DNA of 64,000 nt from Macrostomum lignano (GCA_002269645.1 NIVC01003805.1:1-64000); one strand, 5' to 3'; positions 5,521-49,790 are shown, counted from the first letter of the stretch. Notes: generated from the letters alone by a model not told the origin. Translations and numbers: made by a program.

Positions 5521-7552
5521 TGATGTGTTCCTTACTACCAAGACTTTCTTAGTAATCAAGGAACAATCACTTCTAGCTACTGCTAGGCAACCCAGTAATC
5601 AAACGAAGGTATTTATTACCTTGAGTCCTGACTAGTGTGATGTGTTCCTTATTACCCGACTTTCGATAATCAAGGAAAAATCACTTCTAGCTCAGTAGCT
5701 AGGCAACCCAGTAAGTCAACAGAAGGTATTCAATTACCTTGAGTCCTTTGGAGATCTCTCGGAGTAGCTCTCGATTAGTTTCAGTTGATCTCGTACAGTC
5801 ACTTCTGACTATCGTTTGTAGATCGGGTCCGATTCTTCTTTCTTCTTCAAATAGTTCCGGCCGGATTCTGTCGCTCGACCAATTGATGTGTCCCTTATTA
5901 CCCGACTTATGGTAATCAAAGAACACTCACTTCTAGCTCAATAGCTAGGCAACCCAGTAAGTCAATTAAAGGTACTTCTTACCTTGACGTCGCTTGGAGA
6001 TATCTCTTCTGTAGTCTTCGAGTAGATCTCGCTTGTCTCTATGTGATCTCGTAGATCAGGCGCCTTGATTCTTCAGTTGCTCTGGTCCTGGTTCCTCTTG
6101 TACAGTACTTCCGATAAGTTCCTCCGGCCGGTATCTTCAGTCAGGACCAATCAGAGGCCTCGTATCAACAATGGGTACCCTGCGCCGAACAGCGGTTTGA
6201 ATTAAGCCTCCTTCTTCTAGCAGTGCTCTTGCACTCTAGGTATAGCTCCGGAAACCACTTATAGTCCTCTAAGATCTATCAGGGGCAGTCCTTCTGGAGA
6301 CTGCAACCAATGGAGTCTAAACAGACTCAAGAGTCTCAACAGACTCAAATAGATTCAAGTCTCGATAGACTTGAGCGAGACGTCTCTAACACAACAGGCG
6401 CAAATCAGGAAGGCTTACCGCAACAACTCGACCGAGTCTCGATTGACTTGGTGATCAGGAAGTCCTCCTAAGGCTTCCTCTTCGGAGCTTCTCCTCTCGT
6501 CGGGAGTTGGCTCCTGGTCCGCTTCGGACCGCTTGTATTTATAGGCAACTTTTTGATCCAAAATAGCATCATTACAAACCACGTGTTGCGCTAAAAGGGG
6601 AAAATGGCTCATGGCGTATCATTTTGGTAACATCTTTTCCTGGTAGCGTGATTCATTCAAAGCTTAGGCGCACATGCGTGTACTTACTTACTTGTAGTAG
6701 CATTATACGATTATCTTCTTTTAACCTTTTTTTAACGGGAGGTAGAACACTCTACAAGTGCTCTTCCTGTGAGTTGATCTCGCAATAGGATTCAGTTAGA
6801 TCAGTTGATCTGGCGCCTTACTTCTTGTCTCTGTTCCGAGTCTTCTTTGTGCTCCTTGACTTCTTGCCGGCCGGTGTGGTATCTGTAGTTCGGACCAATA
6901 GGAAGCTTCGAATTAACAATGGGATCCCTGTGCCTTACTTTGGTTTCTAGAAAGCCTTTTCCTTCTAGAGCGCTGCTATGCACTCTAGGTATGGCTCCGG
7001 TAAGCTCTGATAGTCTTCTAAGATCTATCAGGGTTAGTCCTTCTGGAGACTACGACCAATGGATTCTTAATGGATTCAAGAGTCTTAACAGACTCTAACT
7101 CAACAACAATACGAGTCGACTCTAAAAACGGGTGCAAATGAGAAAGGCTTACCGCAAGAACTCGAACGAGTCTAGGTAGGAAGTCTCCTGATGGCTTCCT
7201 CTTCGGAGCTGCTCCTTCTGGAGTCTAAAATCTGAAGCTCCGGGTCCGCTCTGGACCACTTGTATTTATAGGCAATCGGACCCCACATGAGGTTCATTGT
7301 CTTAAATGTCAAAGGTTCACGGATTGGTTGCTGTCAAACATGGCATGGTAGAAAGTTACTTCATTGGTTTAGTGTAAGCGCGCATGATAGGGTACAGCAG
7401 CTCAGTTATTTTTAGATATTTGATCACTTCTAGGTTGATCAAATTATTTGTATGGGTTAGTGCATATCTTTATACATGCTACTTGTCTTACTACTATATA
7501 AGTAGTACGTTAACAATTTTATGGATTTTTGAGAGAGGCTGAATACTCTACA
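5521..7552 (-). mobile_element. LTR family L, copy L1 (probable 3' LTR), interrupted by nested copy L2
   Basis: Begins TGATGTGTTCC at 5521 and ends CTCTACA at 7552. TATA (CCTATAAATACAAG on minus) at ~7260. A degenerate PPT-like flank follows at 7553+. Confidence 0.85.
5638..6756 (-). mobile_element. LTR family L, copy L2, nested in L1, with an extra U5-side segment (5638-5883)
   Basis: TG...CA ends; 4-bp TSD AGTG at 5634-5637 and 6757-6760; a second TGATGTG start at 5884. Confidence 0.9.
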
Positions 7553-7711
7553 AAATCTCCCATGTTACAAAAAACTCGTCCCGAGTTTGAATAATAATAT
7601 AAATTTACAGAAACCTCTTGAACTTGATATGGTATATATTTATATTGTCGGTATGTTACATTGTATACATTAGTAGTGGATAGTTCTGTCAGAGTTAATG
7701 GAAAGTTATCA

Positions 7712-8017
7712 TCAGATAAATGCAGATGACACTTGCCCCTGTGTTGATGCCGCTCGGACGATCAGCCGAAACCGATTCTGAGCACGGCTGTTGTCTGGCG
7801 CGCAGCATACCACTGCCCAGAATGTCGGCTGAAAGCGTGTGAAGCGCGGTTCCTCTGTGCGCTCGAGTATCATCAGGTAGGCGTCAATACTCGTGAGCCC
7901 AGGGTGCTCGCGAGCCAGGCTCCTGGCAATGCCAAGGACGTGACGCCACGACTCCTGATGCCGGTGCGGCCACGGCCACGACCGGACGGCGATGGACAAC
8001 TGCTCGAAGGCCAAGCT
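7712..8017 (-). pseudogene. C-terminal half of a paralog of the double-RING ORF, truncated by L3
   Basis: FEQLSIAVRSWPWPHRHQESWRHVLGIARSLAREHPGLTSIDAYLMILERTEEPRF aligns with LEQLAIAVRSWPWPP*HQASWRTVLNIARDLAREHSELTAVDAYLYLLERTEDPRF at 9528-9790. Confidence 0.8.
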
Positions 8018-9316
8018 TGATGTGTTCCTTATTACCAGATTTTCTCTGTAATCAAGGAACCACCACTTCTAGCTCGATGCTAGGCAACCCAGTTATCAGT
8101 AATGGTACTGTTTACCTTGACTTCAGTTGAGATATCCCTTAGTTGTTCTCTGGTAGGTCTCGTGTCGATCTCTACCGTGAGTAGTTCTCAATCTTCTTCT
8201 TCGTACACGTCGATGGTTTGATGACCAGGTCCGAATCTCTGGTAGTCCTTCGGTGAAGTAGTTGAAGTAGTTGGTCGTTCGGACCAATGATGTGTTCCTT
8301 ATTACTAGACTTTATCTGTAATCAAAGAACACTTACTTCTAGCTCTTTAGCTAGGCAACCCAGTAATCAAATGAAGGTATCTGTTACCTTAACTCCGGAG
8401 TAGTTTCCTCGATACTTCTTGGGTCGACCTCGAGCGTAGATCTCGATGTAGATTTCGTCAACTTCTAGACGTCTAGGGTTAGTAGACCAGGTCCGAGTTC
8501 CTTTCACTTCTGGTTAAGTAGTTCCGGCCAGTATCTGTAGTTCGGACCAATAGGAAGCTTCGTATTAACAATGGGTACCCTGCGCCAAAACTGCGGTTTA
8601 AGTCAAGCCTACTCCTTCTAGCAGTGCCTCTATGCACTCTAGGTGTAGCTCCGGTAATCACTGATAGTCTACCAAGATCTATCAGGGTAGTCCTTCTGGA
8701 GACTGCTGCCAATGGAGTCTCAATAGACTCAATAGTCTCAACAGACTCTAACCCAACACAAGTGAGACGTCTCAATCAACGGGCGCAAATGAGAAAGGCT
8801 TACCGCAAGAACTCGAGCGAGTTTAGCTAGGAAGTCCTCTAGTGGCTTCCTCCTCGGAGCTGCTCCTTCTGGAGTCCAAAATCTGAGGCTCCGGTCCGCT
8901 CTGGACCACTTGTATTTATAGGCAAACGGACCCCACATGAGGTCACGTGAGTTCGACTTCTCAACTGTTAAAGGGTCACGGTTTGCTTGCTGTCAAACAT
9001 GGCAGGTTAGAAAGTTACTCCATTGGTTTAGTGTAAAAACGCATGATTGGTTACAGCATTTGAGTTATTTTTAGTTAAATTTGATTGATTGGTTCACTTG
9101 AGTGCATGCTGAATGATGCATCTCCCTGGGGTTTAAGCTGACAAGCGCGGGTCACACGAGATTGGGTGATTTCTAAAATTCGCATGCTCGAGATTTCTCT
9201 CTTTCTATTGGTTGATTCAAATATATATATGGTTCAGCGCATCTCCTTATTCATGCTCCTCATTTTACTACTATATAAGTAGTCTAAGTATTATTCTGGG
9301 GGTATAATACTCTACA
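8018..9316 (-). mobile_element. LTR family L, copy L3 (3' LTR) with an extra U5-side segment (8018-8287)
   Basis: TGATGTGTTCC at 8018 and again at 8288; CTCTACA end at 9316; adjacent PPT. Confidence 0.9.
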
Positions 9317-10599: not shown

Positions 10600-13135
10600 T
10601 ACGACTTTTCCTATCACCCCGCCCCCAGCACAAATGTACATTATTCAACAGTCTGCCTCTCGCCTGCGCCAGCGTACACCCGCTGTTATTCTTCGTCCCC
10701 TGTTATCGATCTCATAAGAAAGACCTCTTTCGCTCTCTTTAAAATCGCTTAAATCACTGTGTTAAGAAGTTTAGGAGTGTAGCCGTGTAGGACAGGAGTA
10801 TTTCGCTAAAATCGCATTTAAAGCAAGACAATGATTCAACAACAGATTATCATTGCATTAAGGAACCAGGCTAACCAGATGCGCGCACTCACTCGAGCTA
10901 TTTGGCACTCCAGTCAAAATTCAATGGCTCTACACAGCCGCTGAGTCGCACTTCAAAGCACCAGTTGCAGTCCGCACCATTCAGTGGCACTGAAAAACCA
11001 GTCGGACTGCTAACAGCAACAAAGTTGTTGTTGTGTTCATCTATTCGCTAGTATCGTGGGTTGTTCGCTGCTACAAGTTTTGGTAGGTTTAAATTGCCTA
11101 TGTGAATATTTCAACTCATGTTCTCCAGTTTTGTTTCATTGTTTCATCCTTTTTAACATCAGCGCATCGCGCGCGGCTCGATCAAGAACGCCACCGCAGT
11201 CGCCTTCAATCTCAGCAAGTGGACAACCAACCCAAGAGACAGGTCTGCACTATCCCCGCGGATCGACCCCTCAACGCGAATGGCACGCGATTCCCCTGCA
11301 GAGTATCAATGAGGGACGAGAGTCGCCAAACCAAACTGGAGAGTCAATAGAATTAGATAGCGTTCCATCGCAGCGGATGCAAGGCCTCACTGCCCAGGCT
11401 CTGGTGTGATAGGAACCACAATTTATTGAACTACAAGACAAGACGAGGGTAAGATAAGACAGGATGAGATACATGTACGACAGGGTGATAAAAAGAACGT
11501 ATAGACGACCGAAATAATCATTTTAGGTTCAGTTCCTAAAATCATGTAAAAATGAATTGTTGGCATCATACTACTAAATTGCATAAGTAGAGTAGTTTGC
11601 GAAAATACAGTGTAAGCAATAGTTACTAGATTGGCATTTCCAATGGAACGGTACTAACAACAACACGGTGCAAATTTTTTTACATTTTTTTAATATTTTT
11701 GTATCTGCGATCAGCAGACCCCGCCTATCTTCTGTAACTCTTCATACTGCTTAAATTTATTTTAAATTGTAGCTTAATGCTTAAATGTAATTTCCGTGTG
11801 CTTGATGCTATGTCATTTGCCCATTCTTCATTTTTAACACTTTATCGCCATCGATGCTAACTTTCCCATTATTATTTGGGAAATTTAAATTTAAATTTTA
11901 GAATTTTAAATTTATTTGCGGTTTACTCGTTTTACTATAGATAAAAAATACACAAGAAACTATAAAACAGCGTACGTACATCAGTTGTTTTTCAAAGATT
12001 ATATGCTATTAAATTACATCAAAGTTCAATGTTCCGATCAAACCTCAGTTCAGTTAATTGTCTGTCGTTAGATCAAAATACTCCTCTGTCTTTATCCCAG
12101 CACTTCTTCCATCGTCGATGTTTAACCGATAGCCGTCCCTCCCGGTACTCGTCGACACCAGAACGATCTCCACGCGTACATTTCCTCTTTCATATATTCC
12201 GACCGTACCTTCGTAGCCAGGTGGGGTCTGTTAAATACCCCGTTTTTTTGGCTGGAAGAGGTAGAAATGTAAAACATTACTGTAAGATCGTTTAAAGATA
12301 TTTGTTAAACATAAAGTCGAATATATAACTGTGCTCACCTTCTTTGACGTACCGCTCAGCTAAGGCTTTTTGTTGAGCCGTCTTGTCCATAGCTTTGCTG
12401 GATAAAAATAATCTTTTTATCTTTATATTCAAAAATTCTTTTGGAACGCGGCTAATTTGGATTTGTTAGACTGCATCCCCTCTCCTTTTATATAGAGTTG
12501 CTGTTATCGAACGGAGCGTGCGGTTGTTTGATTCTGAAGGAATGAGCGATCAGCCCCATCATCTTTATCCCTTGCTACAACTGTCTTCTTCGTCTTAACC
12601 CCACTAACTTTTATATATACAACAGCTGACACAGTTCCCCTAGTGGCATTTTCAGCCTTGGCACCAACTGTTTCAGTCTTGACTGCATTTATCATCCCCC
12701 TTTCCATTAGTAGACCATTCCTATTTAAAGGATTTCTAAGAAGACCAACTGTCATTCGCCATTAAAATGAAAAAATTATCGTCTTGCTAATTGCATGCAA
12801 AATTTGAAAAAATCTGGGCGCGGGTTGTCCCTTTGACATTTTGGTAAAAGCATGCGGAATGTTGTTTTTTCATCCGGGCTACAGCTGCATGCCATTTGCT
12901 GAGGCTTATATAAGGGACTAGTCCCACAGCCGCCTAGCAACAACGAAGTGTCTCGAAGGAGGCCCTCGAATGCAAGGATGCCGCAATTATCTTCGGCAGG
13001 GCAGAAAAGTGGAACAAACACGAAAACGGACTGCGAACTCTGGCCTGGAGACCCAGTTCTACATGCCGGGAGCTGCTGCCGCTCGTTTTTCAGACCACAA
13101 AGCCGGTAGAGGTCTTTCGCGGCATCACCCGAATA
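10600..13135. repeat. Segment duplicated in inverted orientation at 41.6-46.0 kb (in pieces)
   Basis: 10600-11425 ~ rc(45150-45976); 11640-11880 ~ rc(44905-45125); 12500-13135 ~ rc(41615-42270). 11910-12500 is also a diverged direct repeat of 4625-5225. Confidence 0.9.
12054..12390 (-). pseudogene. Small two-exon orphan gene B, copy 2 (1-nt deletion in exon 2)
   Basis: ATG 12390, exon 1 MDKTAQQKALAERYVKE; GTGAGC donor; TTACAG acceptor (intron 12280-12338). After correcting one deletion, exon 2 ends VEIVLVSTSTGRDGYRLNIDDGRSAGIKTEEYFDLTTDN*. Confidence 0.55.
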
Positions 13136-13470
13136 TAAGTTTCCTAGTTGGCCGCAAACTAAGAACCTTACATATGATTAATAGTAATTCAAACGAGGTA
13201 GAATATGCTTGGATGTTATTTACCGATCAACCATATAATTATATTTACTACTGCATTTTCAACGTTTGTATTAATAAGTAAATAAGCAAATAAGCGAGCT
13301 ACAAGCTACAAGCAGGGAGAATAAGTCTGAGACACTACGGTATAACTAAGCTACTCAAATACTCCTATTAATCTATATTATATATATATATAAATTACGC
13401 CTATCTACCTGGTCTGAGACCGATACGCTACTATTCATAAATCTATAGTCATGGCAGTGCTCAGTCTTAC
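13135..13470. repeat. Dispersed repeat shared with 51052-51440
   Basis: Both copies start ATATAAGTTTCCTAG..GCAAACTAAGAAC..ACATATGATTAA and end AGTGCTCAGTCTTACC; the middles are diverged. Confidence 0.55.
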
Positions 13471-14130
13471 CCTCCGGTCACAGGGGTCTGCAGAAGCGGT
13501 CGTCGTGATTTAGAAACTATTAAGCAATCCAAAAGTTAATACAAGGCGTGTAAAAGAGAGTGAAAAGAGAGTGAGAAAAGGGGTAAAGTTTTTAGCATTT
13601 AACCCCTCGCTTATTTATAGTAAATTTCCCCGATGAAGTCCCTGTGAAACTGTCTGCGTTATCATTTCCCACGTCTTCCAGCCACCGCGCAATTCCGGCC
13701 GATTCTCACGGTTCCCCTTTCTCGTGCGATTACTGAAATGCCTCTGTTAAAAATGTAATTGAACCCCGCCCCACATAAAGCATACAACCCCTCTAAAGTG
13801 GAAGCAGACTTTTAGGGCGGCCTGCACTCGCCCTTTGCAATGCCGTCATCAAGCACTTGTGGCTTTTTGTAAGAGTGCAGCTGTCCACAACTGCTACACT
13901 CCACCACGCTCTGATAACAATGCAATTCCATAATTATTGCCTAATTTAGTCCCTAATACTACTTCCTAAAATAGTCCCTAAATAGTCCCTAAGGCCTACA
14001 TGCATATGAAATTGAATCCTTATAATCACCATACAGAACATTAGGTGCTGCATGACGGTGACGCGCTCTGCATCAACTGATAACTTGCCACAGAGCAGCG
14101 GTGCGGGAGGAATCACCGATACAAAAACCG

Positions 14131-15369
14131 ATGGCAGCGAAAAAGAGACCTCCGATGCGAAAGGCGAAACACCAGAGCCGGCAGCTGTCCGAAAACGCAA
14201 AAGAACGGACTAGAAAGAACAACTCGCTAGACGTCAAGAACTTCTTAGACAGACAATTTTACGATTTGGACCGCCCTACTGCTTTTGCGGGAAGTAAGCA
14301 ACAGCTATTAAGATATGTTAAAATCCAGTTTCCGTCACTAGCATCTAAACGAGCGGCAGAAATCGTTGATGAATGGGCCCGGGATACCAAAGAATATAAC
14401 CTATTTCGCAAAACTAAACGAATATTCAAAACCCACAGAATTGGTGTACCACATATCCCTGGTTTTCAATTCCAAATCGATCTGGCTGATCTCCCTCAAT
14501 AAAAGTCAGAAAACAAGGGATACCGCTACATCCTCGTTTTGATCGATTGTTTCACTCGCGAAATACGTCTGCGACCTCTACGAACAAAAACTGCTAAAGA
14601 GGTGGGCGCCGCACTTGAAAATCTGTTTCGTGAAGGCTTCCGACCTCTCTATCTTCAGGGTGACGCGGGAAAGGAGTTCCTAGGGCGTGAAACTCAAGCT
14701 GTACTAAAACGTGCGGGTGTACGCTCTTTTGTTAGCCAAAGCAATTACAAGGCTGCGATCGCTGAAAGGTCAATCCGTACTCTGAAAGAGCGGCTCAGCC
14801 GTTATTTTCGGGCTCGAAACCTAGAACGCTGGTATGACATTCTACCCCAAATGGAACGAAATTTGAACTCAAGCCCTCACCGGGCGCTGTTTGGTCAGAG
14901 TCCTCACAACACGGCGGTGGATCCGCGTCTACAAGGAATCATCGGGTCTGAGATTATAGAGCATGAAGCCTCGCAGCAGCCTCTATCAACACTAAAGGTA
15001 GGAGACTGGGTAAGAATCGCTCGACAGCGGGGTGCCTTCGAGAAGGGCTATTCGACAGTGTGGAGCAACATCGTGTTTCGGATCCGTGCTACGAATCCTC
15101 GCCGAGCAGCGTCGTATAAACTAGAGAATCCGGAAGACGGAAATAGCACACTAGAGGGTTACTTCAATGAGGGAGAACTACAGCGTGTAGCAAAAGAAAA
15201 TACGGAGCCGTCAGTCATCGAGCGTGTAGACGCTTACGAACAAGACTCAGACGGTCAGCGGCGGTATTTAGTGAAATGGCAAGGAGTTGAGGCCTTTAGG
15301 AATCAGTGGTTGAAAGAAGGCGAGTTGGATGAGCGAACTCGACGGCTTTTTCCTCGCGTTTATAAGTAA
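14131..15369 (+). pseudogene. Maverick rve integrase with C-terminal chromodomain (element 2); one in-frame TAA at 14500-14502
   Basis: FYDLDRPTAFAGS, FQIDLADL (D), LQGDAGKEF (D), AIAERSIRTLK (E), LKVGDWVRI..FEKGY..WS; chromodomain IERV...YLVKWQG..NQWL. The two ORFs share a frame. Confidence 0.92.
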
Positions 15370-15406
15370 ACTGTGAAATTGGAACATAATAACAATTAAA
15401 AATTTG

Positions 15407-15869
15407 ATGGATCCAATATACCGATTCTATTCTGGACCCACTCAAAGCCGGGGAGGATCCTCCGCCCGAGCGATTCCGATCTACGAAGGCTATGGATTCT
15501 TTTCCAACCTCTCTAATCGAGTATTGATCCCAGTTATGCGGAGTGCGGAAAAGGATCTTTTGGCACGGGGCTTGGAATACCTATCAGGCACTAGCAAACG
15601 AGACAACAAACGTTAATCGCAAACGAAAGCACACGGGAGGCGGTTACAAGATGGCGAGCGCAGCAGTTCCCACAAAACGCAGCCGAAAAAAACGTCCCCG
15701 GAAGACTATAAACAAACGGGGTAAGAAAGCTCGCACTCGTGGAAAACCGGCAAAAACCCAGCGAGGAAAGGGTCTAACCAAGAAGAAGCGACGAAGGGTG
15801 AAGAAAAAGCGGAATCGCAAGGGCGTTGCTGCTAAATCGCTGTTTAGTTTCCTGGAAAACCGAAAATGA
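15407..15869 (+). CDS. Putative Maverick virion core/DNA-condensing protein(s), probably frameshifted
   Basis: IYEGYGFFSNLSNRVLIPVMRS resembles the small Polinton Y.G.G..F..L.R..P ORF, followed by an extremely K/R-rich tail with QRGKG. Lies between the integrase and MCP; the stop overlaps the MCP start (ATGA). Confidence 0.5.
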
Positions 15870-18008
15870 ACCAGTTGCTTGGCCCTGACAGTGTAGTACT
15901 AAAAAGCGAATTGGCCCTTTTTGATGCAGCTGCTGTACAGTACAGTGTAGTGGACAGCCAGTATACCCACATTCAGCCGCAACACGGACTCTCAAAAGGT
16001 GCCCCAATCGAGTTCGAATGATGTGTTCCTTATTACCAGTCTTTTGATAATCAAGGAACCACCACTTCTAGCTATTTAGCTAGGCAGCCCAGTTATCAAC
16101 AAGGTATTACTTACCTCGACTTTCCTCAGAGATATCTCTTCTTAATTCGCGCGGTAGATTCTCGTTGATCTCGTCTGTAGATCCTTCGGCGATCGCGTAG
16201 ACCAGGTTCTGTGTGTCTCCGGTTTCGGGCCCTTTGCTTCTTCTTTACTTCCGATGAAGTAACTTCCGGTCGGTAATGTAGTCAGGGCCAATCAGATTCT
16301 TCTTGTCGACAATGGGATCCCTGCGCCAAATATAGCGGTTTCTCTTAAGCCTTCTTCTTCTAGTGGTGCTTCTCTGCACTCTACTAGGTATGCTCCGGAT
16401 ATCGCTAGTAGGTCCTCTACGATCTACTAGGGTAGTCCTTCGGGAGACTACGACCACAGGAGTCTCAACAGACTCAAAAGTCTCAATAGACTTAATTAAA
16501 CTCAAGTCTCAAAAGACAAGAGCGAGCCGGCTCTAACAACAATAGGCGTAATTAAGAAAGGCTTACCGCAACTATCATACCAAGTCTTAGTTGACTGGTT
16601 AACTAGTATGTCGCCCTATCGACACACTCTTCGGAGCGCTCCTCTTCCGTGGGGAGAATGACTCCGGTGCCGCTCTGGGCCACTTATATTTATAGGCATT
16701 TTGTCCATGAGTCACGTGTTGCGCTGTAAGGTGAAATAAGATTGATTGTGGTTAAATATAGTAACATGACTCATGCTGTTACTATAAATAGTAACATGAA
16801 TCATTCTGATGCTAAAAATAGTAACATGAATCACTATGTCGCCACATGTTGCAACATGATTCATCCGCTATAAATAGCCACATGATTCATACGCTATAAA
16901 TAGCAACTTACATCATTTTCTATCTTAAGTGCGCATGCATGCACTTGCTTACTTACTGTAGTATCTATGATTTTTACTTTTTACTTTTATCGGGAGGTAG
17001 AACACTCTACACGAAGTCGTCTCCGCAGGGGATGCACTCTACCTGGATCTACAAGAGACGATTCTAAATCTGGCCATACGTGTACGAGACTCGGACGGAG
17101 TAACCGCTGATGCGACGAAGAACAACGTAGCGCTGACTAATTTGCATATCGCGAGCCTGTTCCGCGATGTACAACTAACTATTGGAGACACTGTAGTCGA
17201 AGGCGGAACCTTCATGTACCCCTACAAAGCCATGCTACTGACGCTTTTAGAATATGGATCGGATGCTCAAACCTGTGGTCTAACGCCTTGGGGTTTCTAC
17301 AAAGACACAGCTGGACAAATGCATTCAGCCGGCGACGCGAACGTTGGCGCTAAACGCCGACGCGCATTGATAGCAGGGGGTCGAGAGTGCCGCTTATCGG
17401 GGCCCTTGTTCTTGGATATGTGCCGCCAGCCGCGGTTTCTGTTGTCTAAAACTCCTGTGCGAATAAAATTGATTCCGTCTTCCGCTGCCTTCGCCCTCAT
17501 GGTCGGTGCGATAGGTGAAAACCCGCTAAAGAGCTACGAGATAGAGGTGCTAAAGGCCGAGCTCCGTGTACGCTACGTATCCCCCTCGCCGAGTGTACTC
17601 GCTGCGCACGCTGCGGGGTTGAAACAGCACAATGCCATCTATCCAATAAATCAGCTACAGATGAGCACGTTTACTGTTACGAGTGGTACGTCTAGCTACA
17701 CACGTGAAAATCTCTTCCCAAGCGGCGTTCCGAAACTTCTACTTCTGGCCTTTGTGAGCAACAAAGCGTTCAATGGAAGTGTGGACACAAACCCGTTTAG
17801 ATTCGAACACGCCAACCTGAGCAGTTTGGGGGTGTTTGTCAATGGGGAGCTGGCGCACAGGTATATAAAGAGGGCAATGTACGATTAGAACTACGCTTCG
17901 CGACTGCCACGGACAAAGTCTACAACGTCATCGTGGGCGGACTATTCGACAAGCAGCTGCATCTGACGGAGTTCCGCGACGTGGTACCTGGATCTGTATG
18001 GAAGTAGA
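15866..18008 (+). pseudogene. Maverick double-jelly-roll major capsid protein, split by solo LTR L4
   Basis: 15866-16018 encodes MNQLLGPDSVVLKSELALFD..GAPIEFE. The frame resumes at 17016 with VVSAGDALYLDLQETILNL..SLFRDV..YPYKAMLLTLLEY..LPKLL..AFNGSVDTNPFRFEH..VNG. C-terminal RLELRFA..YNVIVGGLFD follows an internal deletion/frameshift. Confidence 0.9.
16019..17011 (-). mobile_element. Solo LTR, family L, copy L4
   Basis: TG...CA ends; TSD CGAA at 16015-16018 and 17012-17015. Removing it restores the MCP frame. Confidence 0.93.
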
Positions 18009-18591: not shown

Positions 18592-18804
18592 AAAGCTAGC
18601 GTTTCACTGTTTTAATGCAAGCTTGACCTGATAGTTTTTTATCCAGACAAAAAATATAAAAGCTTTCATCTACAAACGAACTGATTCACAAAAGCATTGT
18701 GCCAATAGAGCGATGCGTGTGTATGTGCCTTTTTTTGGCTGTGACACAGACGGTCGTGGCATTGAACGACCACGTATGTAGAAGAAAGAGTGAGGCTAGA
18801 AAGA

Positions 18805-21198: not shown

Positions 21199-21247
21199 GA
21201 TTGTTTCCTTGGTGGCGATGGTTCAGTCTTGAAACAACATGGCTTGC

Positions 21248-29240: not shown

Positions 29241-29256
29241 TTGCTGAAATGAATAA

Positions 29257-29910: not shown

Positions 29911-29914
29911 CTCA

Positions 29915-38658: not shown

Positions 38659-39243
38659 TCAGAAGTGTTTAAGGACGTCAACGCGAGACTGGTATGAGCC
38701 GACGAGCAGGTGGCGGTAGGCGGGTGGAAGTTGTTTCACTTGGTTGCGGAGCTGTTCGTGGAGGGGGAAACCCCTAGTAACCCTCCATGTATGGTGGAAG
38801 GCCATTTGGGCGAGGTGGGCAAGGCTGGGTGGGGAGAAGGGCGGCTTGGCGAGTGAGCCGATGTCGGCGGCGACGCAGGAGCGGCGAGCTTCGTTGTCCG
38901 TAGCCAGGTGTTCTGGGCGTGTGCCCGCAACCACCAACTCCAAGTGGAGGAGGAGGGGTGCGAGCTCCTGGTACATCAAGACGACCTTCCAGACGGGGGT
39001 GCGTAGACGCGGCAACCTCGTCAGGAAGCGGGCCACCAGGTAGAGTGCCGTTGGCTTGTCATTCGAGCCTTTCAGGATGTAGATTATCGTATTCTGAATG
39101 GCGCGCTCAGATCTTCGGATGGTGTTTGCCGGGAGTAGGGCATACCATGACATCAGGCCATCTAAGACCCGTAGGTCGCCCTTGTTCAACCGCGCCAGTT
39201 CCTCCTGGTCGTCCCATTCGAACACGGTGTCTCCACAGGCCAA
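38659..39243 (-). CDS. Hypothetical protein with a C-terminal SOCS/BC-box-like motif
   Basis: PPSLAHLAQMAF...QLPPAYRHLL at the C-terminus. The frame extends ~25 codons upstream without an ATG. Paralog at 49574-49790. Confidence 0.55.
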   Translation of the reverse strand: MACGDTVFEWDDQEELARLNKGDLRVLDGLMSWYALLPANTIRRSERAIQNTIIYILKGSNDKPTALYLVARFLTRLPRLRTPVWKVVLMYQELAPLLLHLELVVAGTRPEHLATDNEARRSCVAADIGSLAKPPFSPPSLAHLAQMAFHHTWRVTRGFPLHEQLRNQVKQLPPAYRHLLVGSYQSRVDVLKHF

Positions 39244-40689
39244 GTCGATGAGTCGGGCAACGGCTGGGTAATCGTAGCAAAGATGGTAATAGGGGAAGGG
39301 TGGTTGAAGATAGGGCTGGACAAACTAAAATCGTGAGGATCAACCTCCGGGATTAAGCGAAAGGTGCAGAGGGGATTGGAATTGGGCCTAACGAAAGGTG
39401 GTGGAGATGGTCAGGTAGGTTGGAGATAGGTAGCCATAGGGGTTCACGGTCTCGAAGCTGGGAACAAAAAGCGGCATAACTCGTCGGGGAATACATGTCG
39501 GTGGACGGCTCTAGAGAGTGGAAAATTAGGATATGAAACTAGTGGATGGCTGGTGTAGTAAGACTAGGAGCTTTGGAAGGGGAGCAATGAGGGGGGGACG
39601 GAAGATCGGTCTTTATTACGAGGCGCTGTGGGGGATGGGGAACCGCAGACATCCTGACTGAAGAGGCTAAGAAGTGGAATTTGTGATGATTCAACAGACG
39701 CTAGACACTGGGCAGAACCGGCAGTTGACTGCCACGGAGAGACCCCCAGCATAAACAGAGAATGGGGAGGAGGTAGGAGAGTGCCAGCATTTGGAGGCGA
39801 AATCCATCCTACTTCCCAAGGTCCATCGATGAGGGGGATGCCTGCCGGGTGGTAGCATGTTAGCTGGGTTTACTGGCGTGTGACTGGCGGCGGCGTTACG
39901 TTAATCGAATAGTTACAGGCGCGGAGCCTCTGTGTGCTGGAGCGGATCCAGGCTTATTGCGTGGGGGCTAGATCATCCCTGAAAGCAGAACAATACAAAG
40001 CATGGGGTCTGACCCATTGGGACGAATCCAGGTTGACTGACAAAGGGCTGTGTTGGCCGTTTAAACAATAGATAATACCGTTAGTAGAACGTGCCTGCGT
40101 AAGATGCTAAGTGGAGTGGCGCAACGAATTCGGCAATTGGGCTGGAGGCATATGTTCTTGCAGGTAGGAAGTGGGGTGCTTGTCGGTGTCTACAGGATAG
40201 AGGGAACGAAAGTAATCGATTGGGTGCCTAATTAGGAAGAGGGGGGAGGGACCCTAGAATTGGATGGGCAGATAGGCTGAAAGGGGAGCGCGGGTAACAA
40301 AGCGCGGGGGGGCCAAGTGGGAAGCTCGATGCACGAATATCGAGCGATGTCTGAGGGGGCAGAGAGGCTGGGAAGGAATGTCCCGTGCCGATCTGTGTAC
40401 TTCAGCGAAAGCCACAAGTCAGTATTCGACGAATACAGACCAGACTGTACTGTTAAAGTAGACTTCTGGGGAAGGATCGATCGAAAGGGGATAGTCCAAA
40501 GGGCGAGAGCGGCCGTGGGACGAGAAAGGGCTGCACTGTCCAGGCATTCCAGAACTTCTAAATGTCAGCCGTAGCCCCCAAAAGGACGAGGTGGCTGATG
40601 CACTATCCAGCAACAAGTCTACAGCAAATGTCAGAGGAGTGCCTTTCGCCCAAGCGCAAATGTCAAGCCTGCAATTCAGTGCAATTCTT

Positions 40690-41610
40690 ATGAGATATCT
40701 CTCCTTCTTTGAGTCCTTCGTAGATCTCGTGTAGATCTCGATCTGAAGCTCAGGCCTGAATTCGACTCGACTTGTAGTCCTGGTCCGAGTTTCTTTTTCT
40801 TCTTTTGCCGGCCGGTATCTGTCGTTCGGACCAATAAGAAGCTTCCAAATTAACAATGGGTACCCTGCGCCAAACTGCGGTTTAATATAAGCCTACTCCT
40901 TCTAGCAGTGCCTCTATGCACTCTAGGTATAGCTCCGGTAATCACTGATAGTCTACCAAGATCTATCAGGGTAGTCCTTCTGGAGACTGCTGCCAATGGA
41001 ATCTCAATAGACTCAAGAGTCTCAACAGACTCAAACTAAACTCCAACGAGACGTCTCAAAACACAGGCGCAAATGAGTAAGGCTTACCGCAAGAACTCGA
41101 CGAGTCTTCTGTAGGAAGTCCTGTAGTGGCTTCCTCTTCGGAGCTCTTCTCCTTCCGGAGGAATTGTTGGCTCTGAGTCCGTTCCGGACCACTTGTATTT
41201 ATAGGCGTTCAGACCTCTCTCGAGGTCGTACATCACTGTCTTCGCAAATGTCAAAGGGTCACGATTCGGTGGCTGTCAAGCATGACAGGGTAGAAAGTTG
41301 CGCAACTAGTCTACTGTAAAAGCGCATGATTGGTTACCGTAGCTGGTAGACTTTGATTGGTTCATCCGGGTGCAACCCGAGTGCAAACCAAATGATGACT
41401 TGTAGGTGGGGTTTGAATTGACAGTTGTTGGTCGCACGTGATTGGGTGATTTCTAAAATTAGCATGCTCGAGATTTCTCTCTTTCTATTGGTTAATTCGA
41501 ATATACGTATGGTTCAGCGCATATCGTTATACATGCTCCTCAAATTACTACTATTTAAGTAGTACGTTAACAATTTTAAATAACTTTTCTGGGAGATATA
41601 ATACTCTACA
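40690..41610 (-). mobile_element. LTR family L, copy L7, U5 end missing
   Basis: Family motifs GTTCGGACCAAT, GGCTTACCGCAAG and CTTGTATTTATAGGC; CTCTACA end at 41610. Confidence 0.88.
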
Positions 41611-42482
41611 CATCTCGGGTGATGCCGCGAAAGACCTCTACCGGCTTTGTGGTCTGAAAAACGAGCGGCAGCAGCTCCCGGCATGTAGAACTGGGTCTCC
41701 AGGCCAGAGTTCGAAGTCCGTTTTCGTGTTTGTTCCACTTTTCTGCCCTGCCGAAGATAATTGCGGCATCCTTGCGTTCGAGGGCCTCCTTCGAGGCAAT
41801 CGCAGCTTCAGGGAAGAACGCCATCTCGGTCAGCCAGGTTGCTGTTCGTGGCGGCTGTGGGACTAGTGCCTTATATAAGCCTCAGCAAATGGCATGCAGC
41901 TGTAGCCCGGATGGGAAAAAACAACATTCCGCATGCTTTTACCAAAATGTCAAAGGGACAACCCGCGCCCAGATTTTTTCAAATTTTGCATGCAAGTAGC
42001 AAGACGATAATTTTTTCATTTTAATGGCGAATGACAGTTGGTCTTCTAAATCCTGTAAATAGCAATGGTCTACTAATGGAAAGGGGGATGATAAATGCAG
42101 TCAAGACTGAAACAGTTGGTGCCAAGGCTGAAAATGCCACTAGGGGAACTGTGTCAGCTGTTGTATATACAAAATTTAGTGGGATTAAAACGAAGAAGGC
42201 AGTTGTAACAAGGGATAAAGAAGATGGGGGTGATCGCTCATTCCTACAGAATCAGTCAACCGCACGCTCCGTTCGATATCGGTTGGGTTGCTGTCCGTGA
42301 TGACCCACTCTGTTGTGAAGAATAAAGACGGTAAATATAGCCAATCCTAAACAGAGAACTTCACTTTCGATATAAGCTTAGACGGCAAGGGAGCTGTATC
42401 CGAGAGGATACACTCTAAAAAGCGCAATCTCTATTGTATAGCAGTATCAATATAGCTTAACTTCTTAAATTTTGTTTGAGTT

Positions 42483-43345
42483 ATGAGCGAGAATCTAAAT
42501 CATTTCGGACGCGCTGCTGAAGCTGTTAACGACCCTAGACGGGGCCGTTCGCGTTCGCGAAATGGACACCATATAGATACTTTATATTTTAATAGTTCGT
42601 CGCAATTTCCGGAATTTGACGAGTTTCCGGATGCCGACTACTTAAATGAACTATGCCGGATCCCTGAAGAGGGTAAGTTTGGTACCTGCTTGGTTATGTT
42701 TTAATTTATCCTCATTGAAATAAACATCTAGTGTTGCGACTTTCCTCCGCAGATGCCATCAGTCCTGAACCGCAGGGTGATCATGGACGCTGGGCACCGT
42801 GGACGTGGGTGTCGAGTGCGTGGACGTGGGCGAGGGCCCTGTGGAATAATATATATGGCGCTGCGGGCGGAGACAGCGATGTTGAATCTAGCCTTCAAAG
42901 TGATTCTGGCGAGGATGTTCGACCGACCGCTGCGATGCTCGAGTCTTCCGTCCTGGGCGAGGGTGCCGTGGGCGGCGGAAGCGCTGTGCAGTCCGACTTG
43001 GTGAGCGAGCCTTCTAGACCAAGCGAGAGCGTCGCGGGGGGCGGCAGCCATCGTGAGATTGGCTCCGTCGAGGCTCGTGTTTGTCGACAGTCACGGGATG
43101 GACCTAGCCGCAGCGAAGGCGCTATGAGCGGCGACAATCCTCGCTGGTACCCATTTCTTAACCATCGTCACGCATCTCACGTCTACGCGCCCTCTTGATG
43201 GGCGCGGGCATGGACGGGTGCGTAGTAACGGCGAGAATTGGGTAATCATCGCCGAAGAGCCTTCGCTTTATGGTCCATTGCGCATACTGGTTAGAGAGAA
43301 TAGGCCTGGTCCGCCTATTCGACGGGCGACTTCTGACTCGGACTC
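42483..43345 (+). pseudogene. Orphan gene C, copy 2, frameshifted in exon 2
   Basis: Same exon 1, donor and acceptor as 19387-20267. Indels near 43160-43195 shorten the ORF. Confidence 0.6.
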
Positions 43346-43366
43346 GGGCCTCTGTGAATTTTAAGC

Positions 43367-44394
43367 CAAGGACTTCTAGACTAACAGGACGTAAAACTCA
43401 AATATCGTGCAATCCTTTGGAGGCCACGATTTCCTGGAAAAAATACACTGCGAAGATAGGAAAAAATCTGTTTTTCGTCACAAAATCTGTGATTGTATTT
43501 GATCTGGGGCAGTGAAGACTACCATTCTTTTAATTTACCATGCACAACATGTTACTCTATTATATTTTCATATAGCTATGTAATGAAGTTTTAATTTTCA
43601 TATTGTTTTCACTTTATTTCATAAGCCCAAAGTTGCAAACTCACAAGTGGCATTAGCCAAATATCAAATTCAAGAAAAGAAAAGCTATTCAAATTTGTAA
43701 TATAATAATATTTTTAGCCTTTAAAATAAAAATTATAAAAGGACTAATCAATGTTTTTTCTTATAGATACCTAGTAAAAATGGTTAGGGCCTATTTTTGT
43801 GATTAAGTCTATTCTTCTTAAATCTTAGTCTTAAATATAGGCTTAGCTTAAAAACTGATAATACAGCTTTCTCAAGCCTAGGTAACCAACCATATGAAAC
43901 TATGTATTGGTAATCTATATATAATAAAAAATCATTGTCTAAATTTAATTAATTATTAGGCTAGATAGTGTAGTGATAGGTCTAGTTCTAGTAGGCCTAG
44001 GAATTAGTATAGTTACTAAACCTACAATAATAGCTTAAGACTAAGAGTACCTACTTGCAATGTTTTTATACTTTATTTTAAAAAGAACAACACAAAAAGT
44101 TTGGCTAATGCCACTTGTGAGCCTGCAACTTTGGGCTTATGAAATAAAGTGAAAACAATATGAAAATGAAAACTTCACTACACAGCTATATGAAAATATA
44201 ATAGAGTAACATGTTGTGCATGGTAAATTAAAAGAATGGTAGTCTTCACTGCCCCAGATCAAATACAATCACAGATTTTGTGACGAAAAACAGATTTTTT
44301 CCTATCTTCGCAGTGTATTTTTTCCAGGAAATCGTGGCCTCCAAAAAATTGCACGATCTTTGAGTTTTACGTCCTGTTAGTCTAGAAGTCCTTG
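43367..44394. mobile_element. Non-autonomous hAT-type element (1028 bp) with ~310-bp inverted ends
   Basis: Ends CAAGGACTTCTAGACTAAC...GTTAGTCTAGAAGTCCTTG. 8-bp TSD TTTTAAGC at 43359-43366 and 44395-44402. The empty site, with a single copy, is at ~19385-19392. Confidence 0.85.
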
Positions 44395-46534
44395 TTTTAA
44401 GCATTGTGTTTACGCGCCCCCCCCCCCCCCAATAACTAATAACGTTACAGCCGTTACAGAGAATGCAAGCCCGTTGCATTGAGCATGTGTGAATGTATGT
44501 GAAAATAAATATTAATCGCTTTCAGTGTTACTTCAATGCGATTATAATACCGTGTTCTTAATTTGTGCAATACTAAAGTTTCTATCCAATGCTTAATACG
44601 TATTGTGGCACGGCAAACTTAGAACAGTGTTTAGATCTTACACTAGAACTAATACGGCGAGCTTAAACCTAGATGTAGTAATTTTCTCTACGAGCCTTTG
44701 AGTGAATAACAGAGTCTAAAGACCAAGACAGTTTAACGATTAAGGTTAACAAGATTTCATTTCATACATGGAGTTAGTTGAGAATGAAAAATAATACGTT
44801 TAATGAAGCAAAAACATGAGATTAGGAGATAGATATAGAACACCAAACAAAAACACTCAAATATTGTCTTAGCACCAACGCGTAAATATTATAAAACTAA
44901 AAAATAATAATGGGAAAGTTAGCATCGATGGCGATAAAGTGTTAAAAATGAAGAATGGGCAAATGACATAGCATCAAGCACACGGAAATTACATTTAAGC
45001 ATTAAGCTACAATTTAAAATAAATTTAAGCAGTATGAAGAGTTACAGAAGATAGGCGGGGTCTGCTGATCGCAGATACAAAAATATAATTAAAAATTAAA
45101 AAAAAATGCACCGTGTGTTAGTACCGTTACATCAATGCCAATAGTTCAATAAATTGTGGTTCCTATCACACCAGAGCCTGGGCAGTGAGGCCTTGCATCC
45201 GCTGCGATGGAACGCTATCTAATTCTATTGACTCTCCAGTTTGGTTTGGCGACTCTCATCCCTCATTGATACTCTGCAGGGGAATCGCGTGCCATTCGCG
45301 TTGAGGGGTCGATCCGTGGGGATAGTGCAGACCTGTCTCTTGGGTTGGTTGTCCACTTGCTGAGATTGAAGGCGACTGCGGTGGCGTTCTTGATCGAGCC
45401 GCGCGCGATGCGCTGATGTTAAAAAGGATGAAACAATGAAACAAAACTGGAGAACATGAGTTGAAATATTCACATAGGCAATTTAAACCTACCAAAACTT
45501 GTAGCAGCGAACAACCCACGATACTAGCGAATAGATGAACACAACAACAACTTTGTTGCTGTTAGCAGTCCGACTGGTTTTTCAGTGCCACTGAATGATG
45601 CGGACTGCAACTGGTGCTTTGAAGTGCGACTCAGCGGCTGTGTAGAGCCATTGAATTTTGACTGGAGTGCCACAATAGCTCGAGTGAGTGCGCGCATCTG
45701 GTTAGCCTGGTTCCTTAATGCAATGATAATCTGTTGTTGAATCATTGTCTTGCTTTAAATGCGATTTTAGCGAAATACTCCTGTCCTACACGGCTACACT
45801 CCTAAACTTCTTAACACAGTGATTTAAGCGATTTTAAAGAGAGCGAAAGAGGTCTTTCTTATGAGATCGATAACAGGGGGACGAAGAATAACAGCGGGTG
45901 TACGCTGGCGCAGGCGAGAGGCAGACTGTTGAATAATGTACATTTGTGCTGGGGGCGGGGTGATAGGAAAAGTCGTAAAACCCACTGACTGCGAGAGGAT
46001 GGGCTAGTGGATGAGAACGAGCCTCTAGCCTAAGAAGACGAAACGGACTAGCTGCAGTTAAGACAAAACGCTTAGAAGGAATGGAATGATGCGAAAACTT
46101 GTAATTTTTTAACAAACTGGTATAGGGCGGGTGTGAGAGGCAAGCCTGGAAAAAGAAAGAAATCCAGATTTAAGACAAACCATACTAAGCTTATTTTTTC
46201 CATCTGCGGACCAGTGCTAGTGCAACACGGTCTGAATTGAGAGGTGTTTGGTATTGGGACTTCGGCGTGGAGGCAAACATAACTGATGCAGGGTGGCAGT
46301 GACTAGTCCTATTAGCACATTGTTTCTAAATTTGCGCATGAACATTGAAAAGACTTCCAGAAACCAAAAGTTCTGTTGTGCTATAAGAACAAAAAAGAAT
46401 CAGTTGAAGCGGATTTTCCCAGCACCCGAACACTCGCGCATTTAGCTAAAGCGTCGAACCACATCACTATAGCAAAGCAAAAGTTAGCAATCTAGGAGAG
46501 AGTGGCCGCGAGCGTGGCAATAAAGAGGTGGGGA

Positions 46535-48509: not shown

Positions 48510-48529
48510 GAAAGGGCGAGTTCACCAAT
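48510..48529 (-). promoter_or_regulatory. Putative primer-binding site after 5' LTR L8
   Basis: Minus strand reads ...ACATCA|ATTGGTGAACTCGCCC, with TGG two bases after the LTR end. The cognate tRNA was not identified. Confidence 0.5.
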
Positions 48530-49573
48530 TGATGTGTTCCTTATTACAGTCCTCAACTGTAATCAAGGAACAATCACTTCTAGCTCTGTAGTTAGGCAAC
48601 CCAGTAAGTCAACTGCAGGTACTCAATTACCTTAAATCCGGTTGAGCTGTTCCCTTCCTCGAGTAGTTCTCGCAATAGGTCTCTCAGTGGATCCGTAGGT
48701 CTCGCTTATCTTCCGGAAGACTCTGTTGCTCTGGTCCGATTTCTTCTTTGTGTCTCGCCGGCCGGTATCTGTCGTTCGGACCAATGGGAAGCTTCCAATT
48801 ACAATGGGTACCCTGCGCCAACTCCGGTTCAATATAAGCCTCCTTCTTCTAGCAGTGCCTCTATGCACTCTAGGTATAGCTCCGGTATTCTCTAGCAGAT
48901 CTTCTAAGATCTACTAGGGTAGTCCTTCGGGCGACTACAGCCAATGGAGTCTCAAATGGACTCAAGGGTCTCAACAGAATCTAACACTATATCACAAGTG
49001 AGTCGACCCAACAACAACGGGCGCGAATAAGGAAGGCTTACCGCAAGTCACTCGACCGAGTCTCGAGTTGCTTCAGGAAGTCTGCTGCAGAGCTTCCTCT
49101 TCGGAGCTTTCTCTCTAGGAAAACTTGTTGACTCCGGGTTCGCTCCGGACCACTTGTATTTATAGGCAAATGGATCCACATGAGATCACGTGAGTTAGAC
49201 TTTTCAACTGTCAAAAAGGTCACGGATTGGTTGCTGTCAAACATGGCAGGTTAGAAAGTTACTCCATTGGTTTAGTGTAAAAACGCATGATTGGTTATCG
49301 CATTCGAGTTATTTATTTTTAGTTACATTTGATTGGTTCACGTGAGTGCTGTTGAATGATGCATCTCTCCTGGGGTCTGAGTTTGACAAGTGCGGGTTAC
49401 ACGTGATTGGGTGATTTCTAAATTTAGCATGCTCGAAGTCTCTCTCTTCCTATTGGTTAGTCAGAATATACGTAGCTCAAAGCATACCTTTATACATGCT
49501 CTTCATTTTACTACTATGCAAGTAGTACGTTAGCCATTTTTTATGATTTTTGCAGGAGGTAGAACACTCTACA
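48530..49573 (-). mobile_element. LTR family L, copy L8 (5' LTR)
   Basis: Complete TG...CA copy followed on the minus strand by a PBS-like site, leader and gag. Its other side interrupts the SOCS-ORF paralog. Confidence 0.9.
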
Positions 49574-49790
49574 GGCGCGCTCAGACCTCCGGGTGGTGTC
49601 CATCGGGAGCAGGGCGTACCATGACAACAGTGCGTCTAGAACTCGTAGGTCGCCCTTGTCGAGTCGCGCCAATTCGTCGTCATCGTCATAGTCGAAAACA
49701 GGATCACCACAAGCCAAGTGGACAAATTGGGCAACGGCTTGGTAGTAGTCGTGGCGGAGATGGTAGAATGGGAATGGGAAATTAAAGATA
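49574..49790 (-). pseudogene. N-terminal fragment of a paralog of the SOCS-box ORF
   Basis: LACGDPVFDYDDDDELARLDKGDLRVLDALLSWYALLPMDTTRRSERA versus LACGDTVFEWDDQEELARLNKGDLRVLDGLMSWYALLPANTIRRSERA at 39100-39243. Confidence 0.8.

Follow-up and report, generated by a model that had tools for sequence, protein, structure and literature searches.

The 64,000-nucleotide stretch of Macrostomum lignano DNA analysed here (GCA_002269645.1, NIVC01003805.1:1-64000; hereafter the window) is made up of the broken pieces of several envelope-bearing retrovirus-like elements and does not represent one giant element. It constitutes a same-orientation nest in which at least four Ty3/Gypsy families with a gB envelope lie inside Polinton-like DNA. 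Two of these families, L and B, carry additional genes, and their two architectures, each equipped with accessory genes of a putative host-modulating, E3-related type, probably provide the best explanation for the arrangement observed.

Nested insertions in the window

All LTR-element features described below are located on the minus strand, as stated in the initial annotation, and every L-LTR boundary found in the window agrees (nine of nine starts and eleven of eleven ends). The LTR insertions were received by decayed Polinton-like DNA (14062-29922), which contains an rve+chromo integrase, PolB and a deoxynucleoside kinase, together with segments that we take to encode a capsid, an ATPase and a protease. 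L LTRs are found at 27709-28564 (TSD TCGC), 21733-22813 (without a matching TSD) and 16019-17011 (TSD TTCG), and another (5638-6756, TSD CACT) splits a family L 3' LTR at 5521-7552. The three L LTRs that are flanked by 4-bp TSDs within the span considered here (5521-49790) are solo LTRs. The LTR at 13336-14024 belongs to a third gB-env family and is 95% identical to the paired LTR of C103. The segment at 10600-13132, previously read as a series of orphan genes of the element, proved to be dispersed, unrelated DNA and not LTR-element interior; parts of 41615-45977 recur in it in inverted orientation, and it has a relative at C513 near a PLA2-like gene.

The two sites at which a truncated LTR adjoins a SOCS-like ORF had been taken as links within one element. 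They turned out to be secondary junctions, generated by one deletion and one nested insertion. At ~40.7 kb, the window lacks ~1.15 kb present in the homologous region C2285, comprising the end of the L LTR, the 573-bp family B LTR and the B PBS, so that L LTR copy G (40774-41610) has lost its 3' end and family B its 5' LTR and PBS. At 50332, a 573-bp-type family B LTR with a deleted end (49793-50332; 81% identical to a solo B LTR) interrupts L LTR copy I, whose 5' part (50333-50971) lies just beyond the edge of the span, and L LTR copy H then breaks another SOCS-like ORF copy, a truncated one (49574-49793). All accessory gene copies in the window are broken.

Family L and its RING cassette

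Family L is the source of the L LTRs in the window, of its gag and of the piece comprising a RING gene, PPT and LTR. Elsewhere in the genome, L-LTR pairs that are 99.7-100% identical and flanked by 4-bp TSDs enclose ~11.7 kb, as in C1639 (99.9%, TSD ATAT), C282 (100%, TSD AAAT) and C1154 (99.7%, TSD matching at three of four bases). The sister families C717 and C391 likewise have paired LTRs with TSDs, and the paired-LTR elements span 11.3-13.4 kb. The order in family L is LTR-PBS-[gag-env(gB)-PR-RT-RH-IN, one frame]-R1-R2-PPT-LTR, with the domains of the polyprotein following one another as gag CCHC, env, PR, RT, RH and IN. The interior is thus not an ordinary gag-pol: a gB env is present alongside gag and pol, and a pair of double-RING genes precedes the PPT. 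Of the four components proposed to occur between one LTR pair, gag, gB-Pol and the RING genes are indeed found together, whereas SOCS is missing. In intact-length L elements, gag is in frame with env-pol and does not form the separate ORF envisaged initially.

In the window, the LTR-PBS-gag piece was confirmed. It consists of the 5' LTR copy H (49573-48530; TGTAGAG start, ACACATCA end), which is inserted into the SOCS-like ORF copy, a PBS (~48527-48516) with one mismatch to that of the paired elements C1639 and C282, and a frameshifted gag (47968-46723) that is cut off at 46725. This gag is 97-99% identical to residues 1-85 and 96-213 of the C1639 polyprotein, and its zf-CCHC match in Pfam is weak. 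The RING-PPT-LTR piece was verified as well, with RING gene 2 (R2; 10163-9531) followed by a segment (9338-8018) that harbours the PPT, the family L 3' LTR (9316-8288) and a duplicated LTR end (8287-8018), and then by the 3' part of another R2 copy with its PPT (8017-7556). R2 encodes two C3HC4-type fingers and a helical domain; the window copy has one premature stop near 9741 and a CAG immediately 5' of its ATG. The adjacent ORF at 10610-10233, originally described as F-box-like, matches no F-box family of Pfam at E<=1. It represents the C-terminal half of family L RING gene 1 (10586-10233), with 70% identity to R1 residues 106-220.

Both R1 and R2 display a C3HC4 ligand pattern in their sequences and a RING fold in the predicted model (pLDDT 89). 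In all eight R1/R2 proteins compared, the Cys/His ligands are unchanged, as is a P-x-C-R motif that follows the first finger; an arginine at this place is of significance for E3 function. Structure comparison of the model with E3 RING domains yielded middling Z-scores, the best for the first finger being 6.6 (rmsd 2.5, 54 aligned), and Foldseek returned no match at E 0.001. R2 of C717 exceeds the Pfam cut-off (zf-C3HC4_3), whereas most other RING ORFs stay below it, C1405 only narrowly (Sina_RING, 28.6 versus 29.3). Prediction of an R1-R2 heterodimer yielded no answer (score 0.00), an outcome that carries no weight for or against pairing. An AG lies 0-2 nt 5' of the ATG in seven of nine downstream RING ORFs, compared with none of five R1 ORFs.

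Two or three RING paralogues are kept across four LTR families. In an RNase H-integrase tree restricted to elements of this genome, with the C1639 and C282 rows left out, the four RING-bearing rows form one clade with a support of 100/100; the order among the three clades of this tree is unsure because of long branches. Where dS was measurable, dN/dS amounted to 0.10-0.17 for R1, 0.15-0.33 for R2 and 0.19-0.27 for the SOCS-like ORF (dS of 0.4-2.5), compared with 0.04 for the integrase. Judging from these ratios, all three genes are under purifying selection. Full-length homologues were recovered from sequencing-run contigs P0003-P0005 (E 4e-42 to 7e-31). The word-index homologue search with the RING alignment found nothing, a word-index search among longer proteins only the host's own gene model, the metagenome scan with the R1 alignment no relative, and Atlas no usable match for the R2 helical tail. 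All seven own-genome R2-type matches whose fetched flanks lack a gB match sit in an element or LTR context (arrays in C66, C1704, C255, C272 and C1405), and no host parent gene was seen among the R2-type matches inspected, which form a part of all matches.

The cassette is frequently lost. Among the matches listed, 38 of 58 L loci have it reduced to an R1 stub of 70-144 aa, in two deletion classes; both RING genes are full length in 16, several of them frameshifted, and four are interrupted or uninformative. These counts are lower bounds, with 150 candidates scored per search and duplicated assembly regions included. The commonest stub (124-144 aa, 16-18 Cys) keeps both fingers, while the second, also numerous class is a 70-aa stub devoid of even the first one. 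Since most of the cassette is lost in these 38 loci, amplification within the genome does not require it in cis. Contigs covering the cassette were obtained from four sequencing runs, and all four contain the deletion joint. No joint between an LTR donor-like site (about position 770 of the 870-bp LTR) and an R1 or R2 acceptor was listed in these contigs, which drop rare forms. Among the runs listed as containing the cassette, none was identified as RNA.

Family B and its SOCS-like ORF

The Env-Pol of the window belongs to family B, whose order, LTR-PBS-leader with SOCS-like ORF-[gag-env-pol]-PPT-LTR, was assembled from overlapping natural copies; no single complete copy was seen. The third piece recognised initially was also confirmed, with the SOCS-box-like ORF at 39324-38659, a TATATAG near 38465 and an env-pol region at 37956-30530 that matches a gB-like protein, protease, RNase H and integrase. 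Upstream of the ORF lies the family B 5' leader (40687-39325), which in C2285 and C1753 is preceded by the B LTR and PBS. The gag-gB env-PR-RT-RH-IN frame of family B (37884-30530) has a stop and frameshifts, its 3' end is cut off, and ~1.0 kb of gag is missing at 37610. The frame is therefore not naturally devoid of a capsid, as had been assumed, because family B has its own gag, which is full length in C1884, C255, C114 and C1272, whereas the window and C2285 have the deletion. Family B does not share the L LTRs either: it has its own, unrelated LTR of 573 bp with TG..CA ends and its own PBS, and clear 4-bp TSDs flank eight of the 14 B LTR loci fetched, solo copies included. A 555-bp repeat around C1884 was considered as the family B LTR and rejected.

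The SOCS-like ORF has its first Met ~55 codons in. Its ten best Atlas matches are all SOCS_box (top 0.94), at a recognition score of 2108, below the 2300 mark. Searches of Pfam and of PDB sequences gave no match, and the word-index homologue search found nothing. The predicted model is poor (pLDDT 47), and a Foldseek search with it was uninformative. At least nine matches exist genome-wide, most of them damaged, and those examined adjoin a B LTR, leader or gag. Placement of the ORF as a U3 gene was rejected, as it lies in the leader, 3' of the LTR and PBS. No SOCS-like ORF was detected in the 58 3' regions of L loci or between the fetched L LTR pairs. SOCS-like and RING genes belong to separate clades in the RNase H-integrase tree, and no element was seen to carry both. 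A comparable accessory ORF is absent from C247, which the tree places near B, and the ORFs found in two further families are unrelated.

Relatives and possible roles of the accessory genes

The envelope assignment is based on an env profile from six natural copies, which matched herpesvirus gB structures in the PDB (E 4e-15), and on Monjiviricetes_fusion matches above the Pfam cut-off in two families. A signal-like segment, a furin-like site and a TM follow each other in the same order in four of five families scored, the stretch from C1695 ending before the TM. Paired TG..CA LTRs, TSDs of 4-6 bp, a PBS, a PPT and the Pol order PR-RT-RH-IN are marks of Ty3/Gypsy elements (Metaviridae). The position of Env between gag and pol corresponds to the GAG-ENV-POL arrangement of HSV/gB errantiviruses, which the available text of PMC13524379 describes for Platyhelminthes, Nematoda and Bryozoa and which resemble the present elements in the position and gB type of Env and in being multicopy. 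One supplementary row of that report, Mlig_errantivirus_2, has LTRs of ~863 nt and a span of 10.6 kb (PMC13524379). Family L is probably identical or very closely related to it because, in a comparison by LTR length, PBS and env type, the two agree in LTR length, in the 12-nt PBS of C1639 and C282, and in the type of envelope. The reported 10.6 kb is the length expected of a cassette-deleted family L element (11.7 kb minus ~1.05 kb). The words RING and SOCS are absent from the main text and the seven supplements searched, and ubiquitin and accessory from the main text; none of the nine flatworm rows matches the family B LTR or PBS (PMC13524379). Our literature searches yielded no account of such elements carrying RING or SOCS genes, although Repbase, subscription journals, bioRxiv supplements or figures may describe them.

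Accessory functions have precedents in invertebrate elements. According to the portion of PMC10309623 available, the LTR retrotransposon Cer1 produces, from a spliced RNA, the accessory protein CERV, which has a Cys loop and is needed for export of the genomic RNA; unlike R1 and R2, CERV comprises G-like, M and H domains and has a proven RNA-export role. The Burro/GYPSM1 elements, giant planarian Gypsy elements of >30 kb with a polyprotein of 4,900-5,100 aa, contain MATH/TRAF, BIR, BCL2, SUMO-like and ankyrin domains, mostly inside the polyprotein, and the sections available of a review already propose that they meddle with host ubiquitination and apoptosis (PMC6431247). They resemble the present elements in their flatworm host, an env that lies between gag and pol in the same frame, and extra ubiquitination-linked domains (PMC6431247). 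By contrast, the elements described here measure 11-13 kb and carry either double-RING genes that stand alone 3' of pol or, within the leader, a SOCS-like ORF. They show none of the BIR, MATH or BCL2 Pfam domains, and their spans are below the >25 kb of Burro. Viral proteins acting on the ubiquitin system include lentiviral Vif and the RING E3 ligases of large DNA viruses. By analogy rather than demonstrated homology, the SOCS-like ORF could be likened to Vif in its BC-box-like S-L-x-x-L-A near the C-terminus, and R1 and R2, each with a RING and a putative substrate domain, to the RING ligases.

Motifs, fold and selection lead us to infer ubiquitin hijacking. An internal signal peptide and a single TM anchor may thread the polyprotein through the ER, such that Gag and Pol would stay cytosolic and gB would be lumenal and cut by furin. 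R2, and probably also the SOCS-like ORF, would be made from spliced RNAs. R1 and R2 could then act as RING E3 ubiquitin ligases, with the substrate chosen by the helical tail, and the SOCS-like protein as an Elongin BC/Cullin adaptor; both would act in trans to eliminate a factor by which the host restricts or silences the element. Copies lacking the cassette might free-ride, or copying in the germline may require no cassette.

The proposal that all pieces derive from a single element, 5'LTR-gag-SOCS-[env-pol]-accessory genes-RING2-3'LTR with gag as a separate ORF, now appears extremely improbable. The common strand and the co-occurrence of L LTR, gag, gB-pol and RINGs in real elements speak for it, but SOCS and the Env-Pol of the window are not part of L: this Env-Pol is only 28-37% identical to family L, compared with 97-99% for the gag, a separate gag and an unrelated LTR belong to family B (the latter being the second half of the refuting condition set initially), L elements lack SOCS, and the LTR-SOCS links reflect a deletion and a nested insertion. 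The proposal is refuted by C1639, C282, C1154, C1884 and C2285.

Given the two architectures, R1 and R2 may instead serve the element's own cycle, by Rev- or CERV-like RNA export or as a budding or matrix helper, which we regard as rather unlikely. The dependence of Cer1 on CERV would fit this idea, but CERV shows no RING finger in the text available (PMC10309623). Arenavirus Z RING proteins are among the weak fold matches, and a trans-acting factor would likewise let deleted copies spread. The retention of both fingers in the commonest stub agrees with such a role, yet the numerous 70-aa class loses even the first, and the MGNxxS start of family L R1, which we assume to be a myristoylation-like motif, is missing from the sister families. 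It is more doubtful still that the elements captured the RING and SOCS-like ORFs as passengers, which would now be on their way to being lost and have no present role. The 38 of 58 listed L loci without most of the cassette, the broken window copies and the damage to most SOCS-like copies would be expected in this case, but dN/dS of 0.10-0.33 over dS of 0.4-2.5, the paralogues kept in four LTR families and the element context of all seven R2-type matches, with no host parent among the matches inspected, argue against it. A role as host-modulating, E3-type accessory genes thus probably remains the best reading of the RING and SOCS-like genes.

Our findings hint at extra host-manipulating genes in these invertebrate elements. 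Dedicated counter-defence accessory genes are a hallmark of complex vertebrate retroviruses. For invertebrate Ty3/Gypsy elements, the available portions of the published accounts offer domain lists (Burro) and an RNA-export factor (CERV). It is tempting, if quite tentative, to speculate that "complex" invertebrate retroviruses exist, in which gB-envelope clades independently gained ubiquitin-ligase modules as counter-defence genes that are used in moving between cells and shed by germline-only copies. If so, the modules would be stand-alone RING E3s in one clade and an Elongin-Cullin adaptor in another. This would amount to a strategy like that of Vif in an animal that lacks adaptive immunity, and would imply a flatworm restriction factor. 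Surveys using the commonest copy can overlook such accessory genes. As these genes are small, soluble and selected and have natural deletion variants, the question of element versus host defence is directly testable in M. lignano, in which RNAi works.

Family L and the proposed composite element

The RING-bearing gB-envelope element with L long terminal repeats (family L) is real. When the genome assembly (G000, 764 Mb in 5269 contigs) was searched with the env sequence of the window, at least 149 matches were obtained, in groups of ~99, 69, 59, 35, 32 and 30% identity, while the RING ORF yielded at least 145, many of them ~5.5 kb downstream of the 30% env group; such copy counts are inflated by duplicated regions, including contigs C66, C1704, C2285 and C4060, which repeat large parts of the window at 96-100% identity in rearranged form. 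Three of these loci are bounded by L LTR pairs 866-1060 bp long, with 99.7-100% identity between partners; they span 11.7-11.8 kb and have the TSDs ATAT, AAAT and TTAG/ATAG. Their interior is a single frame (2538 aa open at C1639) comprising a zinc knuckle, env, PR, RT, RH and IN, followed by two ORFs of ~220 and ~210 aa, a PPT and the LTR, a plan shared by two sister families with other LTRs (C391, C717). Since the window gag shares 97-99% identity with the beginning of this frame, one pair of L LTRs indeed encloses gag, gB-Pol and the double-RING genes, as initially annotated, yet gag is in frame with env-pol rather than a separate ORF. A profile compiled from six natural env sequences matched herpesvirus gB structures (E 4e-15). 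Three features recur across families, namely a signal-like segment downstream of gag, a furin-like site, and a TM upstream of the protease; the product would be a single polyprotein that passes through the ER membrane once.

The initial annotation had tentatively merged these parts with a SOCS ORF and the window's Env-Pol (30530-37884, minus strand) into a single composite element. Its LTR-PBS-gag, ORF-TATA-env-pol and RING-PPT-LTR pieces do lie where it placed them, but the links between them dissolve on inspection. LTR H is an insertion within a copy of the SOCS-like ORF, and the LTR preceding that copy is a different, 573-bp repeat that interrupts L LTR I. The junction of LTR G with the SOCS leader reflects a deletion: in the homologous region C2285, a complete LTR G is separated by ~140 bp of other sequence from the 573-bp LTR, which has its own PBS. 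The supposed orphan genes repeat the DNA of 41615-45977 in inverted orientation, and a relative lies at C513; the F-box-like ORF represents the C-terminal half of a RING gene. Moreover, the Env-Pol shares only 28% (env) and 37% (pol) identity with family L and belongs to family B, which has its own gag and LTR, the latter with no similarity to L LTRs. A single composite element is therefore very unlikely.

Family B and related clades

The gene order of family B was pieced together from overlapping natural copies, no single complete copy having been seen. A full-length gag occurs in C1884, C255, C114 and C1272, and the window copy and that of C2285 have lost ~1.0 kb of it; the 573-bp LTR has TG..CA ends and comes after a PPT in C1884 and C513, and 4-bp TSDs are clear at eight of the 14 LTR loci fetched. 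In the window, a 9-bp tandem array (35859-36086) encodes a Thr-rich, mucin-like insert in the gB ectodomain, and this insert varies in length among copies. The SOCS-like ORF (38659-39324, minus strand) has nine matches in the genome, representing ~4 independent places after merging of duplicated regions, and lies between LTR-PBS and gag in C2285 and C1753 and between leader and gag in C255. It was found neither in 58 3' regions nor in the paired L elements fetched; the gene belongs to a separate family. Its ten best Atlas hits were all SOCS_box clusters (best 0.94, with recognition short of the mark), and searches of Pfam, of PDB by sequence and by fold yielded nothing; the SOCS identity follows this one lead, together with a stretch that we take to be BC-box-like.

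In a tree of RNase H-integrase (13 rows), the four RING-bearing rows formed one clade (100/100), and family B clustered with C247, which has no evident accessory ORF, and C172. The family of C172 (L059:753-1706), C3269 (L069) and C1695 (L068) has an unrelated 318-aa ORF downstream of pol, without a Pfam match. A further unrelated ORF of 254-260 aa follows pol in a third gB clade (L061:6798-7577 (C1189), L064, L080, L065 (C1674)); its ATG is immediately preceded by CAG, and the ORF shows 41% identity between families and no clear Pfam match. Two further features were noted around L001/L003 (C247), L006/L007 (C158) and L009/L011 (C600): LTRs of the C247 family terminate in TTTGA, not CA, with perfect 4-bp TSDs in three of three copies, and tandem-repeat arrays contain or adjoin several gB elements.

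The RING cassette and its loss

The two RING genes of family L, R1 and R2, each encode a pair of C3HC4-type fingers plus a helical tail, with 20-24% mutual identity. R2 was modelled with confidence (pLDDT 89); its first finger aligns with E3 RING domains at a middling score (Z up to 6.6, rmsd 2.5, 54 aligned), while structure comparison of its tail gave no clear match. Where measurable, most other pairs being saturated, dN/dS was 0.10-0.17 for R1, 0.15-0.33 for R2, 0.19-0.27 for the SOCS-like ORF and 0.04 for integrase. An AG lies 0-2 nt upstream of the ATG in 7/9 downstream RING ORFs, whereas none of five R1 ORFs has one, which suggests that the downstream ORFs may be made by splicing. Two contigs of sequencing run X1 exit an LTR at a donor-like AAG|GTAATT (L021:4577) into other sequence, possibly reflecting LTR-driven splicing to a neighbouring exon. 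Sequencing-run proteins P0003, P0004, P0005 and P0021 (back half only) are homologous to the double-RING, helical-tail family.

We compared 58 L-type loci (an initial three, 40 picked for absence of an R2 match and 15 more); the numbers are minimum values in which duplicated parts of the assembly are counted too. Both RING genes were full-length in 16, and 38 carried a deletion of one of two classes that leaves an R1 stub directly before the PPT-LTR; one was interrupted and three were uninformative. The deletion joint was present in contigs of all four public sequencing runs examined. In many deleted copies the 3' LTR shares 99-100% identity with the 3' LTRs of full copies, so the deleted copies are amplifying alongside the full ones. 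The cassette is therefore not needed in cis.

Genomic setting and possible roles

The window, which is the first 64 kb of contig C3805, combines fragments of LTR elements with Polinton-like DNA (rve+chromo integrase, PolB, deoxynucleoside kinase, PLA2-like ORF and genes that we assume to encode capsid, ATPase and protease). Nine starts and 11 ends of L LTRs, all on the minus strand, include three solo copies with 4-bp TSDs, one nested inside another L LTR. The minus strand holds every LTR found (5521-55321), and four families are represented: L, B, C103 type (14024-13336) and C391 type (55321-54361). Unlike the LTRs, Polinton-like pieces occupy both strands. Same-orientation arrays recur at C2121, C1130, C87, C669 and C272, and the first four hold 10/16 full RING cassettes; together, these features suggest a flamenco-like piRNA cluster or orientation-biased self-insertion. 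Within 28560-29922, the deoxynucleoside kinase gene (Pfam dNK, E 3e-21) and an ORF without a Pfam match that we presume to be TBP-like lie upstream of the Polinton-like PolB. The PLA2-like ORF (Pfam Phospholip_A2_4, E 1e-13) and a dispersed segment that occurs in several copies in both orientations account for 790-1404 and 4025-5387, 10600-13132, 18993-20707 and 41615-45977; a diverged copy at C513 has the PLA2-like gene close by, which would fit an endogenous DNA virus. Within 57284-62355 there are several satellite arrays, their periods being 28, 27, 17 and 16 bp.

GAG-ENV-POL gB errantiviruses have already been published for flatworms (PMC13524379); family L agrees with a row of the supplement in LTR length and PBS, the 10.6-kb span fitting the cassette-deleted form, and that paper mentions neither RING nor SOCS. 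Burro elements already tie ubiquitination domains to flatworm elements with in-frame env (PMC6431247). In the literature searched (outside Repbase and subscription journals), we found no report of RING or SOCS-like genes in such elements. As for function, the RING genes could regulate the element itself, a distinctly less probable option, for which CERV, the product of a spliced accessory gene, offers a precedent (PMC10309623). That the RING and SOCS-like ORFs are passengers appears improbable. A Macrostomum lignano gene model includes an element RING protein at 100% identity, which makes this flatworm the most likely host. Taken as a whole, we consider our reading reasonably probable, with a host-directed E3 function as the most likely role.
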